From: Promethearchaeota archaeon
GTDB taxonomy: Archaea; Asgardarchaeota; Lokiarchaeia; Sigyniarchaeales; SOKP01
Reading direction: 5' to 3'
NCBI GenBank assembly: GCA_011364925.1
Contig: RDOA01000044.1
Span: 1-31,867 of the forward strand
DNA: 31,867 bases
Shown here: one piece after another, positions 6,505 through 26,983 of the stretch
Numbering within the stretch: the first letter of the stretch is position 1
Layout of the letters: every line of letters begins with the position of its first letter
Made by a program: the position numbers and the translations under genes
Notes under the pieces: model-generated
Told to the model about the DNA's origin: nothing
Databases searched by the model: none
What the model saw: only the letters and a program-made list of their open reading frames with translations

Positions 6505-7077
6505 ATGACACTTAATAACAATCAAGAACAACTTAACGGAATAGAACCCGATGTAATGTTTAAAGTTTGTTTTTTTGGGGATGGAGGCGTAGGGAAGACA
6601 ACACTGATTGATAGATACCTTACTGGAGTGTTTAAATCTGATCATACTTTAACCATTGGAGTTGATTTCCATATTAAAAAACTTAGAATTGGAGATAAAA
6701 TAGTTTCTCTCCAAATTTGGGATTTTGCCGGAGAAAGTCGATTTCGGTTTCTTTTACCGAGTTACGTTGTCGGTGCGTCTGGAGGGATTTTCATGTACGA
6801 TATAACGAGATTCTCCAGCTTGAAAAATTTTCCCGAGTGGATTGACATTTTTAAAAATGGGTTTGCAGGGCAAGGTGGAAAACAATTACCCGTTCTAATG
6901 GTTGGAAGCAAACTAGATTTGAGTTATAAACGGGCTGTTTCAAGCAAAGAAGCATACAAACTTGCAAAAGAAAAGAATTTATACGGATATATCGAATGTT
7001 CTTCAAAAGATGGGCGTAACGTAGAAGATATATTTACGGAAATAGCAAAGTTAATGTTGACCCGAGCTAAACTTTAA
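6505..7077 (+). CDS. Rab-like small GTPase (Ras superfamily)
   Basis: G1 GDGGVGKT, G2/RabF1 TIGVDF, G3 WDFAGE, G4 SKLD, G5 ECSSK; no C-terminal cysteine motif. Confidence 0.95.
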   Translation: MTLNNNQEQLNGIEPDVMFKVCFFGDGGVGKTTLIDRYLTGVFKSDHTLTIGVDFHIKKLRIGDKIVSLQIWDFAGESRFRFLLPSYVVGASGGIFMYDITRFSSLKNFPEWIDIFKNGFAGQGGKQLPVLMVGSKLDLSYKRAVSSKEAYKLAKEKNLYGYIECSSKDGRNVEDIFTEIAKLMLTRAKL

Positions 7078-9380: not shown

Positions 9381-9746
9381 ATGGAGTCTGTCGATACTTT
9401 AGATGACCTTTTGAAAAAATTACTTGGAGCAATTCCAGAAGTAAAATCTGCTGCTATCGTGTCTGCTGAAGGACTTCCTATTGCTTCTGCGCTTCCCCAA
9501 GGTGTTGATGAGACAAGAATCGCAGCAATGACAGCAGCTTTACTTTCCTTGTCTGAAAGAGCTATCATTGAAATGGGAAAGGGTGATTTCGATCAATTAT
9601 ATATTAAAGGGAGCGAAGGTTATCTTTTGGTAATGCAAGCTGGCCCAAATGCGGTTTTGACAGTATCTACAACAAAGGATGTCAGACTTGGATTAATTCT
9701 GTTAGATTGCAGAAGAACTTGCGAAAAAATTGCCCAATTGATCTAA
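9381..9746 (+). CDS. Roadblock/LC7 (MglB-like) domain protein
   Basis: AAIVSAEGLPIASALP, RIAAMTAALLSL, GDFDQLYIKG, LGLILLD; near-consensus roadblock; GGAGA SD-like motif upstream. Confidence 0.93.
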   Translation: MESVDTLDDLLKKLLGAIPEVKSAAIVSAEGLPIASALPQGVDETRIAAMTAALLSLSERAIIEMGKGDFDQLYIKGSEGYLLVMQAGPNAVLTVSTTKDVRLGLILLDCRRTCEKIAQLI

Positions 9747-19630: not shown

Positions 19631-20914
19631 ATGGCAAAAAGTGAATACTACATCGGCGAAGCATTACTTGGAGCCGAGGAAAATTTAGCTCACATAGATT
19701 TGATTATTGGTTCTAAAGATGGCCCGGTTGGGGTATCTTTTGCAAACGCTCTCAGTTCACCTTCGATGGGACATGGAGGTCTTCTAGCGTGTATCAGACC
19801 AAATCTCCTTACAAAACCGGTCAGTCTTGTTATTCCTAAAGTTACTGTCTCAAAGATGGAAGAAGCAAACAAAATTTTTGGACCCGCTCAAGCTGCCGTT
19901 GCTAAGGCTATTGCCGATGCAGTAGAAGAAAATCTAATACCAATGAATAAACTTGACGAATGGGTACTTATTGTAAGCGTCTTTATTCACCCTGCTGCAA
20001 AAGACTATCGGAAAATCTATCAATATAACTATAGCGCTACTAAGCTGGCGATTCAAAGAGCTTTGAAACAATACCCTCCAATTGAGAAAATTTTCTACGA
20101 TAAAGATCGAGCAAAGCATCCAGTTGCTGGAATGAAAGTACCAAGATTATGGAGACCTCCATATATTCAAATAGCTTTGGATCATCCAGATTTAGAACAC
20201 CATATTAAAGTGGTTCAGCAATTACCGAAGAGCGACAGAATTATCTTAGAGATCGGAACACCATTTCTTAAAAAATATGGAATGGAAGCGATAAAAAAAA
20301 TACGAGAGCTTGTTCCTCAAAAATTTATCGTTGCAGATTTAAAAACCCTGGATGTTGGGAAGTTAGAAGTAGACTTCGCCTTTGATGCAACAGCTGATGC
20401 AGCTGTTGCAAGCGGATTAGCTGCAGCTTCATCCATTGATAAATTCCTTTTAGAAGCAAGTCGTATGGGAATTTATGGTTATGTTGATACCATGGAAGTA
20501 GACGATCCCGTCGCAAAATTAAGTAAGCTAAAACAGATACCCGATGTCGTCATTTTACATCGGGCTATTGATGTAGAACAATCTGCTGGAGCTGAAGCTC
20601 CAGATGCGGCTCAAAAAGCAAGATGGGCAGCTATACCTAAGATTAAGGAAATGTATAAAGGTCAAAAGCTAGCTTCTGGAAGAGATCGCGTTCTCGTTGC
20701 CGTAGCAGGAGGTATAGATCCAAGCACTGCCAATTATGCATTAGAGATGGGAGCAGACATTTTAATTGTAGGTAGGTTTGTGACATCATCTAAAGACATT
20801 GAAAATTCAATGCGAAGACTCCTTAACATCATTCCAGGTTATTCAGATATTGACCTAAAAAGAATTCACACCGAGGATGACGATGCTTCTGTAAAGAAGC
20901 CTAGATGGGATTAA
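19631..20914 (+). CDS. fae-hps: Bifunctional formaldehyde-activating enzyme / 3-hexulose-6-phosphate synthase
   Basis: Fae: IGEAL.G, AHIDLIIG, FGPAQAAVAKA, VFIHP, NY.ATKLAI; Hps: LWRPPYIQIALD, LEIGTP, ADLKTLDVG, LHRAID, VAVAGGI, ILIVGR. Confidence 0.95.
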   Translation: MAKSEYYIGEALLGAEENLAHIDLIIGSKDGPVGVSFANALSSPSMGHGGLLACIRPNLLTKPVSLVIPKVTVSKMEEANKIFGPAQAAVAKAIADAVEENLIPMNKLDEWVLIVSVFIHPAAKDYRKIYQYNYSATKLAIQRALKQYPPIEKIFYDKDRAKHPVAGMKVPRLWRPPYIQIALDHPDLEHHIKVVQQLPKSDRIILEIGTPFLKKYGMEAIKKIRELVPQKFIVADLKTLDVGKLEVDFAFDATADAAVASGLAAASSIDKFLLEASRMGIYGYVDTMEVDDPVAKLSKLKQIPDVVILHRAIDVEQSAGAEAPDAAQKARWAAIPKIKEMYKGQKLASGRDRVLVAVAGGIDPSTANYALEMGADILIVGRFVTSSKDIENSMRRLLNIIPGYSDIDLKRIHTEDDDASVKKPRWD

Positions 20915-21760: not shown

Positions 21761-24016
21761 TTACTTAATTGGACGACTATTAGCTTGAAAGATTGGTCCT
21801 ATAAACTGACTATAAAGAATACTGAAAGCAGATTGATTTGATATGACGCTAATCATCTCACTTTCTTTATCTGTCGCCGGGCCTATGATAACCTCTTCCG
21901 CGTCTCGTGTGAGTGCGAAGAATTCACCTGCACCGCTAAGTTGTCTGAACTGGATGTTTCCAAGTCCCATCATTTTGCGAATTATATCACCATATTGACT
22001 CATTTCAAAACGAGATGTAAGCATAAATCGCACAGCTTTCTTCTGATAAGCGTATTCACTGATTACTTGTAAAATTTCGGGAATTACATAAGGCATAACG
22101 ATAATAATTGAAGATTTAACCCTATAAATCGCATCTTTTATAGCTGCTATTAATGCATCTCGACCAACTACTTGCCATGTAGTAATGTTCTCAATTTCTG
22201 GTATAGAACTCGATGCAATGTGGATATCTCCTAATTTACTTTCGTTCTTTTCAGCAAACTCGGTAGCATCGTCAATTGAATTCATAAAATGTAGTGTAAA
22301 ATCCGCAATAGCGTCTTTAATATTTTGAGTGGTATCTCGAGTTGTCGTAGAAAGACTATTTTGTAACGTTTTCGCGTTATTTTCGTATTTTGTTTTATGA
22401 TCGATTAACATCTCACTTAAGTTCCTATCTAGATCTGCTGATTCATCGCCCCATAAATTAATTTCGGCAGTAATATTATCTGAAGCGTCTCGTTTACCTC
22501 CAGTAAATTTATCGTCGAGATCTCTTATCCAATCCTCCTTAATGCGTTTAACATCAGTGTCGAACGTACTGTAATTTCTCAAAGATTCCTCTTTGTGCCT
22601 ATTGATGGCATCGTCGTATTGTCTGTGGTGAGTTTTAAGCGAGTTTTCTAAAGAGTCTTTCAATTTTACTGTCGTATCTGAACAATCTTTTACACCATTT
22701 TGTAAAGTATTGTCAACTTCACCAGCCATATCCGATGCTAATGTTTCTAATTGAACATTGATTGTTTCTTGAGCTTTATGATCTAAATCTGTAGTTTCGG
22801 ATACTACATTGTCATTTTCAGTGGTCATAATCTGGGTAACGTCTGATTTTAAGCTATCTGTTGTTTCTCTGGTGTTCTTAATATAATCATCACTAGTGGT
22901 TGTAAAATCGTCTTTCATTGGTTCAGTGAATTTTAATATGTTTTGAATAGTTGTCTCGTGCCTTGCTTTGTATTTTTTCTTCTTCCCCATCCAGAAAAAG
23001 CCTTTTTTAGCCATATCCTCTGAAAAATCAGTGAATCTATTTGCATGCTCCAATAAGTTGTCGATTAATGTTAATGTCATACTTTTAAAATCGTTGGATT
23101 GAGTTGTTAACACTCTGTGTCTTTCGTCGACTGTAGATTTCAAGTTCGTTTGAAGTGTATCGGTGGTATTTTTAAGGTGGTTCAAGTGTTCTTTTAACAA
23201 GTGTGAAATTCTCTCTTTTAGATCGATAACGATTTTATCCATGCGTTCTAGATATTTTTCGAGAATTTGCTCCAATCTTGGTTTAAGGTCATTAGCGATG
23301 GTTTGATGTCTATCAACGTGATTATCTAAGTTACTTTTTAATTCTTTTTCTAAATCGTCTACTCTTTTTGTAAAATCTGCTAACAGATTTGCAATTAAAC
23401 CAGTCAAGCCTTCTTTAGTTCTATCTACCATCGATTCATTTTCTTTTACTCTGCCATCGCTGATATTTTTGATATCAGAATTTAGAGTATCCATAATAGA
23501 ATGTAGATTCTCTTCCAAAGACTTTGAAGTGTCTGTGAATCGATTTCTAGCGCTATTAATTCTATCTCTTTTATCATTATTCTTAGTATCTGAATCGCTG
23601 AAAAAAGAGGTAAGTTGATCACTAACAGCAGTTTCTACCTCGTTTATGCTTTTGTCTTGAATAGCTTCTAACTTTTCAAAACGGCTTGATTGATCCGCCA
23701 GGATGGAGTCCTTAATTTTGGCAATCTCGTCTCTAAAGACTTTAGATTCTCCAATATATAACTCAAAAAATGGTTCTAACGGAATGAATCGATCTACAAT
23801 CCCCGTTACCTTTTTGAGAAAGCCAGTTTCGACTAACCAATCAGTAATCTCTAGAACAGATTCATACGATAACTCTGGATGTTCTTCAGCTAAGCTGAGG
23901 TAAACTTCAGATGATGTCGCCCTTGGAACTCGAAGATAAACAAGGTATACATTGATCTGATCTTCTGTGAAACCATATCTCGTGAAAATTTCCTTCGTAA
24001 ATTCTTTTAAGCTCAT
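21761..24016 (-). CDS. TrmB-like protein: N-terminal wHTH, about 520-aa coiled coil, C-terminal PLD-like (TrmB effector) domain
   Basis: YGFTEDQINVYLVYL...TSSEV...L.ETGFL.....RFIPLEP is a TrmB-type HTH; TWQVVGRDAL...IYRVKSSIIIVMP...TRDAEEVIIGP matches the TrmB PLD-fold domain without HKD; middle region helical with only two prolines. Confidence 0.8.
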   Translation of the reverse strand: MSLKEFTKEIFTRYGFTEDQINVYLVYLRVPRATSSEVYLSLAEEHPELSYESVLEITDWLVETGFLKKVTGIVDRFIPLEPFFELYIGESKVFRDEIAKIKDSILADQSSRFEKLEAIQDKSINEVETAVSDQLTSFFSDSDTKNNDKRDRINSARNRFTDTSKSLEENLHSIMDTLNSDIKNISDGRVKENESMVDRTKEGLTGLIANLLADFTKRVDDLEKELKSNLDNHVDRHQTIANDLKPRLEQILEKYLERMDKIVIDLKERISHLLKEHLNHLKNTTDTLQTNLKSTVDERHRVLTTQSNDFKSMTLTLIDNLLEHANRFTDFSEDMAKKGFFWMGKKKKYKARHETTIQNILKFTEPMKDDFTTTSDDYIKNTRETTDSLKSDVTQIMTTENDNVVSETTDLDHKAQETINVQLETLASDMAGEVDNTLQNGVKDCSDTTVKLKDSLENSLKTHHRQYDDAINRHKEESLRNYSTFDTDVKRIKEDWIRDLDDKFTGGKRDASDNITAEINLWGDESADLDRNLSEMLIDHKTKYENNAKTLQNSLSTTTRDTTQNIKDAIADFTLHFMNSIDDATEFAEKNESKLGDIHIASSSIPEIENITTWQVVGRDALIAAIKDAIYRVKSSIIIVMPYVIPEILQVISEYAYQKKAVRFMLTSRFEMSQYGDIIRKMMGLGNIQFRQLSGAGEFFALTRDAEEVIIGPATDKESEMISVISNQSAFSILYSQFIGPIFQANSRPIK

Positions 24017-24290
24017 AAGCTTTTCTCCATTTCTAAAATTAAAATTTGTTGTAATTCACATTAAAATAAATTTAATCTGAATTTCTTATTAAGATTTTTA
24101 TAATATTTTAAAGTTATAATTATATCTTCAAAATTATTATATTAAAACTTAAGGTTACATACATCTCATATTTTGAGTTTTTCTTTCTCCCTCAAAAAAA
24201 GAAATGGAGATAATATCTAAGACAACAATGTATAAAAATTAGCAATTTCTTAGAGTTTAGTTAATTAGATATTTCTAAATTTATCAATCG

Positions 24291-24320
24291 GGAAAAATTA
24301 TTCCTCAATCCTTTTTATAT
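24291..24320 (+). promoter_or_regulatory. Imperfect palindrome plus TATA box upstream of the surface-protein gene
   Basis: GGAAAAATTATTCC (24291-24304; 12 of 14 positions symmetric) followed by TTTTATAT (24313-24320), about 30 nt before the start at 24352. Confidence 0.4.
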
Positions 24321-24351: not shown

Positions 24352-25050
24352 GTGAAAAAAACCATGAAAAAAGTAAGTAAAATTCTATTAGGCACTTTTT
24401 TCTTGATGCTTCTATTCTCGACGATTACATCGTTTAATGTTGTAGCGATTACTGATCCCGATGAAGTCATTGATGTTCCAGGTGACACAAATCAAGCACA
24501 AGTACAAGCGAACGTTGCAACGATGTTTCGATTTAGACAAAGAACTCAACTAAGGATACAAGCGAATGTCAATTTGAATCTTAATCTTGAATGTGATGCT
24601 TTAAGAATCGGGGATAAAGATTTTGTCCTTGAAATTGAAGGAAATGGTGACCTTCAAATGAACATGACCTGCACTCAAGAACAAGAACAATTGGGATTAA
24701 TGCTGGGAAATACATATCGGATAAGGAATCAAAACCAATACCAATATCAGGAAGGATTTGTCATTGATATCGAGTGCAATGGAACATTTACACAAGCAAG
24801 AATCAGAATAAGAGCAACCAATGAAAATCGATTAGGTCAATTTGCTTATCATGATGAAGCAACTGGAAATTGGGTGAATGTTCCTACAACTGTGGATGAT
24901 GGTTACTTAACAGCAGATGTATCACATTTTTCAACATGGACAATTCTCTTACCTGATTATACTCCATTAATCGTAGGATTCAGTATCGGTGGCGGCGTTG
25001 CTGCTTTAATAGTAATAGCATTGGTGTTTTACATAAAAAAGAGAAAATAG
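24352..25050 (+). CDS. Secreted, C-terminally membrane-anchored surface protein with juxtamembrane HFS motif
   Basis: Basic + hydrophobic signal peptide, beta-rich Q/N-rich ectodomain, AYHDEATGNW...LTADVSHFSTWTIL, TM helix, KKRK tail. Confidence 0.85.
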   Translation: MKKTMKKVSKILLGTFFLMLLFSTITSFNVVAITDPDEVIDVPGDTNQAQVQANVATMFRFRQRTQLRIQANVNLNLNLECDALRIGDKDFVLEIEGNGDLQMNMTCTQEQEQLGLMLGNTYRIRNQNQYQYQEGFVIDIECNGTFTQARIRIRATNENRLGQFAYHDEATGNWVNVPTTVDDGYLTADVSHFSTWTILLPDYTPLIVGFSIGGGVAALIVIALVFYIKKRK

Positions 25051-25072
25051 TGCAAAAATTAACATCTTTAAC

Positions 25073-25083
25073 TTTTTTTTTTT
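25073..25083 (+). terminator. Oligo-T terminator-like tract
   Basis: Run of 11 T, 22 nt after the stop of 24352..25050. Confidence 0.5.
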
Positions 25084-25128
25084 AATTTTTAAAAAAATAT
25101 TCTAAAGAACAAAAATTGGATTAATATA

Positions 25129-26382
25129 ATGGTTAAATTGAAAATTCCAAACAAAACAAAACTATATAGCATTTTTGTTTTATTATTCATATTCATTAAT
25201 TTTAACATTTTTATTTCTCAAGTTTTAGCTTATAGAACTGAGAATATCCCGGGATTTTCGACTCAGGATAATATTTATCCTAATGAGTCTGTAGAATACC
25301 TTTTTTATAACAATATAGTTTTCGATATTTCTACCGATACTTTTATCAATCTTAATATTCAATATGAGAATAACATCGAAAATCGTCAAATCTATTTCCA
25401 GATTAACAATAGTTTCCCAATTGCTCTTAATATTAGTTCCAAAACCTCTATGCAGAATTTTGGAATGCCTCAATCTCCTCAAGGACCAAGAAAAGACGAC
25501 AACCAATTTCGTTATGGATACAACTGTATACTTCAAATTAAGAGTAATACAACCATAGAACATTTGGTTATAAGTAGTGTTAAAAGGGCTTCATACGGAT
25601 TAAATCCTAATTTAAAGTATTCACTAGCGTTATACGAATCGTCGCAAGACTCATGGGAGCTTATTGATACGAGCGAGGTGTTAAATGAAACTACTTCAGA
25701 GTTTTCTTTAACTGGTACAGTTTCTAATTTACAAGCTGACACTGAATACTTTATTACATTTTACGAAGTTACTGAAATTTTTAACAATTGGATTTTAGTA
25801 ATTGTTTTAATTATAGGTGCGTTAGGTATTGCTTCTTTAGCTATCTTAATTTCAAAAAGTGATTATTTTCAATATCTTAAAACCAGGACGGTGCCAATTG
25901 AAAAAGGTGCGCATCGCTTAAGCTTGGAAGAAGTTTTAGAAAATGAAAACCGGAACAAAATTATTGATCTAATACTCAAGGAACCTGGAATCCATTTCAA
26001 CGAGTTGCTAAGAAAAACTGAATTAGCAGCGGGTAATCTCGTATGGCACCTCGATATATTAGAAACATACAAAGTTATAGGGAAAAAAAGAATAGGTAAC
26101 TTTATCGCCTACTTCCCGTACTACCAAAAAAATCCCATTTCAAATCTTGATCTTCAGTTAAGTAAGAGTAAATTAACACTAGAGATTTTAGAAATGATCG
26201 AAAAACAACCAGGTCTATGGAATAGCGTAATAACAAAACATTTTAAGGTAGATCATAAAACTATTCGATATCACATAGAAAAATTAAAGGATCTTAATCT
26301 TATTAATTTTAAAAGTGACGGTAGAAAGAAAAAGATTTTCCCTAATCTGGATTCAGAGTATTTTAATAATAAAAATTCTTAG
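25129..26382 (+). CDS. Membrane-spanning transcriptional regulator: ectodomain + TM + tandem winged-HTH (COG3398-like)
   Basis: N-terminal signal/TM, beta-rich ectodomain, TM WILVIVLIIGALGIASLAILI, then VLENENRNKIIDLILKEPGIHFNEL...LVWHLDILE and a second HTH ILEMIEKQPG...TIRYHIEKL. Confidence 0.88.
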   Translation: MVKLKIPNKTKLYSIFVLLFIFINFNIFISQVLAYRTENIPGFSTQDNIYPNESVEYLFYNNIVFDISTDTFINLNIQYENNIENRQIYFQINNSFPIALNISSKTSMQNFGMPQSPQGPRKDDNQFRYGYNCILQIKSNTTIEHLVISSVKRASYGLNPNLKYSLALYESSQDSWELIDTSEVLNETTSEFSLTGTVSNLQADTEYFITFYEVTEIFNNWILVIVLIIGALGIASLAILISKSDYFQYLKTRTVPIEKGAHRLSLEEVLENENRNKIIDLILKEPGIHFNELLRKTELAAGNLVWHLDILETYKVIGKKRIGNFIAYFPYYQKNPISNLDLQLSKSKLTLEILEMIEKQPGLWNSVITKHFKVDHKTIRYHIEKLKDLNLINFKSDGRKKKIFPNLDSEYFNNKNS

Positions 26383-26464: not shown

Positions 26465-26983
26465 GTGTATGAAATTATGATAAATCCAGAAGAATTTTTG
26501 AAATTTCTTAAAGAACGAAGGAGTATTCGAAGTTTCCTCGATAAAGAAATCCCTGACAAAGAGATTGAAATGATACTTGAAGCGGGGAGATGGGCTCCAA
26601 GTGCTTCAAATAAACAACCTTGGGAATTTATTGTAATCAAGGACAAAGAATTCAAATTAAAAGTTTCTAAAACTGCTGCATACGGAAGGTTCATGAAACA
26701 GGCACCAGTATTAATTGCGATAATAGGAAAAACTCGAATTAGCCCAAAATGGTATATCATTGATACATCCTTAGTTACCATGAATATGATGCTAATGGCT
26801 TGGTCATTAGGACCAATTGGAACATGTTGGATTGGATCAATGAATAGGGAAAGGGCAAGAGACATTCTGAAATTAAGTGAAACGGATTATGTTGCAACTA
26901 TCTTGCCTTTTGGATATCCAGAAGGAGAAATTCCTAGCCCAACAGCAAGAAAAAGCAAAGAAAAATTAGTTAAAGAGATTTAA
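26465..26983 (+). CDS. Nitroreductase family protein
   Basis: RRSIRSF, ILEAGRWAPSASNKQPWEF, APVLI, MMLMAWSLG.IGTCWIG, PFGYP; start GTG 26465 or ATG 26477. Confidence 0.94.
   Translation: MYEIMINPEEFLKFLKERRSIRSFLDKEIPDKEIEMILEAGRWAPSASNKQPWEFIVIKDKEFKLKVSKTAAYGRFMKQAPVLIAIIGKTRISPKWYIIDTSLVTMNMMLMAWSLGPIGTCWIGSMNRERARDILKLSETDYVATILPFGYPEGEIPSPTARKSKEKLVKEI

Follow-up and report, generated by a model that had tools for sequence, protein, structure and literature searches.

Architecture of the locus

The stretch analysed here (the window) is contig RDOA01000044.1 of assembly GCA_011364925.1, 31,867 nucleotides of a Promethearchaeota archaeon of the Lokiarchaeia, and our subject is a pair of adjacent genes on its plus strand. 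Gene 1 encodes a small surface protein (protein 1, or the partner), and gene 2 encodes a transmembrane transcription regulator (the regulator). Both carry an outer domain of a common, GAIN-like kind; only that of protein 1 has a predicted self-cleavage motif, and a conserved element in front of gene 1 is the candidate site of the regulator. The features are the following:

24290..24308, plus strand: operator-like element GGGRA-n4-TRTWCCYYAA immediately ahead of the TATA box, where the regulator may bind as an activator
24312..24319, plus strand: TATA box (TTTTTATA) of gene 1, whose distance from the element is constant among orthologues; putative function from archaeal promoter anatomy
24364..25050, plus strand: gene 1, a type I membrane protein of 228 amino acids (aa) with a signal peptide, one MAIN/GAIN-B-like beta-sandwich, a transmembrane helix and a KKRK tail
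24364..24447, plus strand: predicted signal peptide of protein 1, with a hydropathy peak near residue 11 and a putative cleavage site
24448..24957, plus strand: MAIN/GAIN-B-like ectodomain of protein 1 (AF2 pLDDT 91; structural matches)
24925..24933, plus strand: H-F-S, predicted cis-autoproteolysis motif (cut between F and S), ahead of the last strand
24970..25047, plus strand: C-terminal transmembrane helix and KKRK stop-transfer tail of protein 1 (hydropathy 2.54; kept in orthologues)
25073..25083, plus strand: T11 tract, archaeal terminator-like; T runs are conserved in the spacers
25129..26382, plus strand: gene 2, a 417-aa single-pass transmembrane transcription regulator
25231..25776, plus strand: regulator ectodomain, a paralogue of the protein 1 domain, without the cleavage motif
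25741..25749, plus strand: T-E-Y of the regulator, at the position of H-F-S in protein 1 (register from the last strand as aligned and from the ends of the structural matches)
25792..25851, plus strand: transmembrane helix of the regulator (residues 222-241), then a conserved juxtamembrane segment (hydropathy 3.06; alignment)
25942..26346, plus strand: two winged helix-turn-helix (wHTH) domains, HVO_0163-type then ArsR/MarR-like (Pfam)

The start of protein 1 is likelier the ATG at 24364 (228 aa) than the GTG at 24352; orthologues span 219-237 aa. The initial annotation, made from the sequence of the window, had protein 1 ending in a transmembrane helix plus KKRK and the regulator running through a transmembrane helix into two wHTH domains; hydropathy and conservation confirm the former, and Pfam the latter (HTH_HVO_0163_N and HTH_5). 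The regulator matches PF24266, PF13412 and PF01022 above the cut-off, with PF24266 at residues 272-330 (HTH_HVO_0163_N, E 9e-14) and PF01022/PF25212 at residues 348-406 (HTH_5). Having both DNA-binding domains and a membrane helix, it is a transmembrane transcription regulator by definition. Both proteins have a single transmembrane helix after the ectodomain, and neither is a seven-helix receptor.

The two ectodomains are paralogues

The two ectodomains had been aligned by eye in the initial annotation, and all four segment pairs recur in the same register in BLASTP and profile-profile alignments. BLASTP gives 19% identity over 145 aa (E 3e-6), and hhalign on the ectodomain profiles (56 and 51 orthologues) gives a probability of 98.5 with E 2e-15 over 143 columns; unrelated folds, named beforehand as the outcome that would break the pairing, are not what this comparison finds. 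The sole other match to protein 1 in the 3.9-Mb genome is the regulator ectodomain, and the protein 1 model superposes, with a TM score of 0.85 over 167 residues, on an Atlas model from a cluster of regulator type (423 aa, with the same Pfam HTH families as the regulator). The ectodomains of protein 1 and the regulator are paralogues. A tree places 30 of 31 regulator ectodomains, which come from all four families of the order, together in a supported group (98/95) to the exclusion of the partners; the duplication is therefore old.

A GAIN-like domain with a predicted cleavage motif

Missing from the initial annotation was the key feature of protein 1, the HFS motif at 24925-24933: the ectodomain ends in H-F-S and is followed by one further strand, a short linker and the transmembrane helix. 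The motif is kept in 93 of 96 orthologues, and its F and S are invariant in the protein 1 alignment (56/56 rows). In the AF2 model (pLDDT 91) it lies in the turn between the final two strands, 153-158 and 163-169. When this model was compared with 48,161 solved chains, the best match was the BAI3 GAIN domain (Z 7.1, root-mean-square deviation 3.7, 123 residues aligned), followed by CD97 GAIN (6.4), CARD8 FIIND (6.1), CELSR1 GAIN (6.0) and CD97 again, so that four of the top five rows are GAIN domains and the fifth is FIIND/ZU5. If the last strand is free of gaps, the ends of the aligned ranges place the serine of protein 1 on residue 531 of CD97 (in two entries) and its phenylalanine on residue 856 of BAI3, at the L856/S857 site. 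S531 is the cleavage residue of CD97 (PMC12519206), and L856 is located at the cleavage site of BAI3 (PMC3321182). Because the Z values are moderate, support for the fold comes from the rank of the matches and the register of the motif. Foldseek returned no match at E < 0.001 for either ectodomain, and neither was named by Pfam, NCBIfam or PDB sequence searches.

A family of Microbial Autoproteolysis INducing (MAIN) domains, exemplified by B. subtilis YfkN, self-cleaves between the F and S of HFS (Brogan and Rudner, bioRxiv 10.64898/2026.05.12.724683). On its modelled fold, protein 1 fits this family as a bare GAIN/MAIN-like domain on a single membrane anchor. It shares the GAIN-B-like sandwich, the HFS before the last strand, the signal peptide and a C-terminal surface anchor; it differs in its lack of cargo, in its size (228 aa against a mean of 158 kDa) and in its transmembrane anchor, and a paralogue of the domain here belongs to a protein with DNA-binding domains. 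The protein 1 profile also matches SLH-anchored bacterial multi-domain proteins with HFT or HFS (P0342, E 9e-9), and these matches cover just the last 40-70 positions. Taken together, the fold, the register and the motif indicate that protein 1 probably cleaves itself between F and S. Its single domain occupies the entire ectodomain, with no N-terminal adhesion or enzyme cargo, and relatives carry two or three tandem copies of the domain, or a cysteine insert, in place of cargo. Since there is no cargo, the working part would be the domain itself or the membrane-tethered strand that cleavage exposes.

The regulator ectodomain is modelled (AF2 pLDDT 96) with the fold of the protein 1 domain and has structural matches to BAI3 GAIN (Z 5.9) and ZU5 (5.7). 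No HFS occurs among the regulator orthologues inspected, apart from P0292, a further regulator that has the motif and retains its partner. Even without the motif, the regulator ectodomain is under purifying selection and does not decay: its ratio of non-synonymous to synonymous substitution (dN/dS) is about 0.07-0.16, similar to that of the partner, and the cytoplasmic/wHTH part has about 0.03. Two observations on related regulators may be added. A 241-aa paralogue (G000:C82:1947-2672, minus strand) has a related double wHTH without a matching ectodomain and shares 37% identity with the regulator across the transmembrane and cytoplasmic part; and in one genome (L079, G150:C43) the regulator is split into two open reading frames (ORFs; 295 and 153 aa), by a frameshift or an assembly error.

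A promoter element that tracks with the regulator

A site at 24291-24304 had been singled out in the initial annotation as a possible target of the regulator. The site is there, and it is part of a longer conserved element that lies three bases ahead of the TATA box in orthologous promoters and tracks with the regulator. A perfect palindrome at 24291-24304 was considered as the conserved unit and rejected; relatives keep the asymmetric element. With a matrix seeded on 39 orthologous promoters and a match set at more than 15 bits, 85 of 94 orthologous promoters score as matches, and the best of 415 other promoters here reaches 5.9. The element is unique in the genome of the window, at 41.7 bits against 23.7 for the next hit, which lies inside an ORF. 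It is kept at the fusion loci described below and at 18 unlinked cysteine-array paralogues, and it precedes both genes where the pair is split (G138) and the regulator where it stands alone (G151). Four genomes that are 94-99% complete (G234, G174, G220 and G228) lack a regulator orthologue, a partner and a credible element together. From its position and this co-occurrence, we consider it likely that the regulator binds the element. Archaeal activators bind just upstream of the TFB-recognition element (BRE), and the element occupies this spot, so activation is its likely sign. No operator or regulon of this kind was described in the literature searched. At two loci (L076 and L082), a second copy of the element precedes a 132-aa ORF downstream of the regulator.

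Between the genes, the T11 tract reported earlier is present at 25073-25083. Of 72 orthologous spacers, 71 have a run of at least seven T, whereas the share among co-oriented spacers in the genome of the window is 24%; by sequence, the tract fits a predicted terminator that would lower read-through into gene 2. In the single RNA run with the locus of the cultured P. syntrophicum MK-D1, contigs span the whole stretch, and contigs give no ranking of expression.

Conserved pairing, fusions and a second Asgard class

The initial annotation had made conserved adjacency a point on which the proposal would stand or fall, and the pair proves to be syntenic across four families. On contigs of sufficient length, the partner gene comes before the regulator gene in each of the four families of the order, except at second copies and in G138; this arrangement takes in Sigynarchaeum and MK-D1, whose locus has two tandem partners (DSAG12_02936 and DSAG12_02937) plus the regulator. 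Close homologues of both proteins come mostly from Lokiarchaeia. With the protein 1 profile as the only query, there was no match in seven Lokiarchaeia genomes from outside the order, nor in several further Asgard families, such as f13, f18 and f19. A stand-alone protein 1 homologue beyond Asgard, with no regulator adjoining, lies on a Bathyarchaeia contig (L243, JAOZIC010000020.1), and Atlas clusters likewise point to Bathyarchaeia. Unlinked protein 1 paralogues (L180-L198; for example G237:C28 and G177:C18) have an inserted CxC array of 21-62 cysteines.

Four clusters at 90% identity are natural fusions, in which a partner-type ectodomain with intact HFS is followed by a transmembrane helix and the wHTH pair. 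On the three contigs read, the fusion gene stands ahead of the nitroreductase gene, and once it also adjoins the usual upstream gene; the fusions therefore occupy the orthologous locus. They nest within the partner clade and have dN/dS values of 0.06-0.19. These fusions, which make the cleavable domain the input of the regulator, are under purifying selection.

In the Hodarchaeales and one related family, a gene for a membrane helix with a double wHTH directly precedes a gene for two or three HFS domains with a transmembrane helix. All 16 promoters of the Hodarchaeales type carry AAAGTGTT(C/A)C(T/A) ahead of a TATA-like box, of 18 occurrences in total in 200 kb, and the exact 16-mer is found once per genome in five genomes. 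This motif corresponds to the right half of the element in Lokiarchaeia. What the two classes have in common is therefore the gene pairing and part of the site, but not the paralogous ectodomain.

Predicted regulon

The exact element pattern was matched 22 times in 15 genomes (14 of them Promethearchaeaceae), against one match for the reversed control, and these 22 matches precede partner genes, the split regulator and secreted peptidases. The peptidases include HExxH proteins, one with an InhA-like MAM domain, and two are secreted metalloproteases in MK-D1; one of the two MK-D1 sites had no part in building the pattern. The peptidases also include Ig-C13-like proteins, which lie under the element in two genomes, independently. 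Across 47 genomes of the family of the window, the pattern has 57 matches against one in the control. This set includes clostripain-family proteins, beta-helix surface proteins and secreted Asp/Gln-repeat proteins, together with one cysteine-array paralogue and one small cytoplasmic cysteine protein; a few of the matches look like chance. Peptidases of three unrelated families in separate lineages are a pattern, though the kindred genomes are not independent. In the genome of the window, the partner gene is the sole target found. Small secreted Asp/Gln(/Cys)-repeat proteins under the same element (L270, L272, L273 and L275) were also seen, and Pfam gave no family for the one Asp/Gln-repeat protein tested.

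Discussion

We propose that the pair is a dedicated surface-sensing activator module, in which protein 1 is both target and co-sensor; this reading has close to an even chance of being right. The membrane-bound regulator would bind the element beside the TATA box and activate gene 1, as position and co-occurrence suggest, and in relatives it would also activate a small set of secreted or surface proteins, peptidases included. Protein 1 would cut itself between F and S and be held together by its last beta-strand, until contact with a surface, a polymer or another cell pulls off or displaces its outer fragment. In the most speculative step, the regulator would receive this change within the membrane that the two proteins share, and its own copy of the domain, which cannot be cut, would be the stable half. 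Protein 1 would then be output and co-sensor at once, closing a feedback loop, and in the fusion lineage both roles may be carried by one chain. That the state of protein 1 controls the regulator is an evenly balanced proposition. Three points incline us towards it: no target other than the HFS gene is constant in both classes, protein 1 has no cargo to release, and its domain can take the place of the regulator ectodomain in fusions that are under purifying selection. In the fullest version, transcription in Asgard archaea would be gated across the membrane by a self-cleaved domain of the GAIN-like kind: contact or force would strip off its outer fragment, and the wHTH regulator, paired with it or fused to it, would activate surface proteins and secreted peptidases. 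This is a tentative and rather doubtful extension.

Several findings weigh against this proposal. The best fold match, at Z 7.1, is below the level at which the comparison tool calls a match distinctive. Three orthologues (L075, L076 and L082) lack the histidine, with E, D or G preceding F-S, and one clade of cysteine-array paralogues has replaced the H-F of the motif. Protein 1 has no adhesion domain for taking up force, and adjacency of a regulator and its target is common and needs no protein contact. In G151, which is 96% complete in 280 contigs, there is a regulator and no partner was found; in G276 the wHTH is borne on an unrelated ectodomain; and in the Hodarchaeales the regulator ectodomain is unrelated to the HFS domain, with a wHTH tree of long branches that leaves the orthology of that regulator undecided. 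G138 has its regulator 2.9 Mb from a partner with two tandem HFS domains (L155 and L199). Given these arrangements, paralogous ectodomains are not needed for the pairing, and an obligate heterodimer is weakened, as the regulator occurs also alone or with other ectodomains.

The main rival takes the regulator and its target at face value: the regulator would be a modular one-component sensor, and protein 1 a sheddable effector that sends no signal back, with the paralogy left by an old fusion between neighbouring genes. It explains the ectodomain swaps, which befell the wHTH several times (in the Hodarchaeales, in G276 and in the recent fusion clade), as well as our proposal does, and the same holds for G151; the unlinked pair of G138 and the unrelated secreted proteins under the element also suit it. 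It leaves unexplained why the HFS gene alone is constant across the regulons of two Asgard classes and is the sole target in the genome of the window, what a cargo-less MAIN protein would have to release, and why fusions with the cleavable domain as regulator input are under purifying selection. We regard it as possible but somewhat improbable. The initial annotation had drawn a loose analogy to Notch, and in its strict form a shed or neighbouring paralogous ectodomain would be the obligate ligand of the regulator, after which a site-2 protease would free the wHTH. Paralogy, synteny and the glycines in the regulator membrane helix agree with this, and the genome has two M50 (site-2) protease genes, although M50 was found in 14 of 14 control genomes; an SPP/presenilin-type protease was not found in a PF06550 search. 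The analogy falters on the place of the cut: outside the natural fusions, it is the partner that has a cleavage motif built in, and not the regulator, which has no site-1 motif. The same pairing and half of the element also occur with non-paralogous ectodomains, and many transmembrane regulators work from the membrane (PMC10269533). Next to the readings with and without a signal back from protein 1, this one has the least support, and we consider it unlikely.

It could also be that a different factor, such as a paralogue of transcription factor B (TFB) or a soluble regulator, recognizes the element, and that the membrane regulator has other targets. The element abuts the position of the BRE, and a preprint reports a Sulfolobus TFB paralogue that drives its own gene set (bioRxiv 10.64898/2026.09.06.749720). 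Nevertheless, the element is missing where the regulator is missing, and it precedes the regulator itself in G138 and G151. Its conservation extends to 22 bases ahead of the TATA box, farther than a BRE does. This explanation is very unlikely.

Adhesion G protein-coupled receptor GAIN domains (BAI3, CD97 and CELSR1) and ZU5/FIIND are the top structural matches for the ectodomains, and in the receptors, as in protein 1, the cleavage motif has the same place and is followed by one strand and a membrane helix. Here, in contrast, there is no helical subdomain A, seven-helix bundle or G protein, identity is 12-14%, and the output is a wHTH encoded by a second gene. ToxR/ToxS, TcpP/TcpH and VtrA/VtrC (PMC10269533) likewise place a single-pass regulator beside a small single-pass partner with an outer domain. 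The present pair differs from these in its C-terminal DNA-binding domains (the reverse topology), its HVO_0163-type double wHTH, its archaeal promoter, and a partner that is paralogous to the sensor and predicted to self-cleave; Pfam found no Trans_reg_C match, the sign of an N-terminal OmpR-type wHTH, in the regulator. In SigI/RsgI, a self-cleaved, non-covalently held SEAL ectodomain is proposed to gate transcription (bioRxiv 10.1101/2023.06.27.546760). The gating logic is shared, and the output in Clostridia, polymer-degrading enzymes, can be compared with the peptidase targets suggested here. The RsgI fold, however, is SEA-like rather than GAIN-like, its cleavable domain is on the signalling chain itself, and RsgI is an anti-sigma factor with RasP cleavage, whereas the cytoplasmic part of the regulator is a wHTH pair with no anti-sigma domain. 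Archaea, to our knowledge, have no sigma factors. By analogy, the pair may work like a co-component transmembrane regulator with a logic like that of SigI/RsgI, as a member of neither family.

Eukaryotic GAIN domains signal across the membrane, and their microbial relatives are so far known just as release devices; no signalling mechanism is associated with the anchored MAIN fragment, and Asgard archaea are unmentioned, in the description of that family (bioRxiv 10.64898/2026.05.12.724683). If our proposal is true, cis signalling by GAIN domains would have a prokaryotic precedent among the lineages nearest eukaryotes, and the pair may be the first link between the microbial MAIN domain and signalling into the cell. 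The case is small and testable: one domain stands without cargo, its paralogue lacks the cleavage motif and is joined to DNA-binding domains, natural fusions put a cleavable domain and the wHTH pair in a single chain, and few targets lie under the predicted binding site. A weaker reading still gives a predicted operator and a regulon partly common to two Asgard classes. The system is present in the cultured MK-D1, which grows on amino acids and peptides (PMC7015854) as a degrader of both.

Neighbouring genes

Upstream of the pair and transcribed away from gene 1, 21761-24016 (minus strand) encodes a 751-aa protein with a long central coiled-coil, which is kept beside gene 1 in most genomes of the family; Pfam names no family for it, and weak Apolipoprotein and ZorA-like scores are far below the cut-off. 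In many genomes of the family, fusion loci included, the gene behind the regulator is that of the nitroreductase (26465-26983, plus strand), and no operator was found upstream of it. Farther away, 6505-7077 and 9381-9746 encode a small GTPase of the Ras family and a Roadblock/LC7 protein, both eukaryotic-signature genes of the kind usual in Asgard archaea. At 19631-20914 (plus strand) lies a Fae-HPS fusion (formaldehyde-activating enzyme plus an OMPdecase/HUMPS domain), which is also near the locus in another genome (L122).
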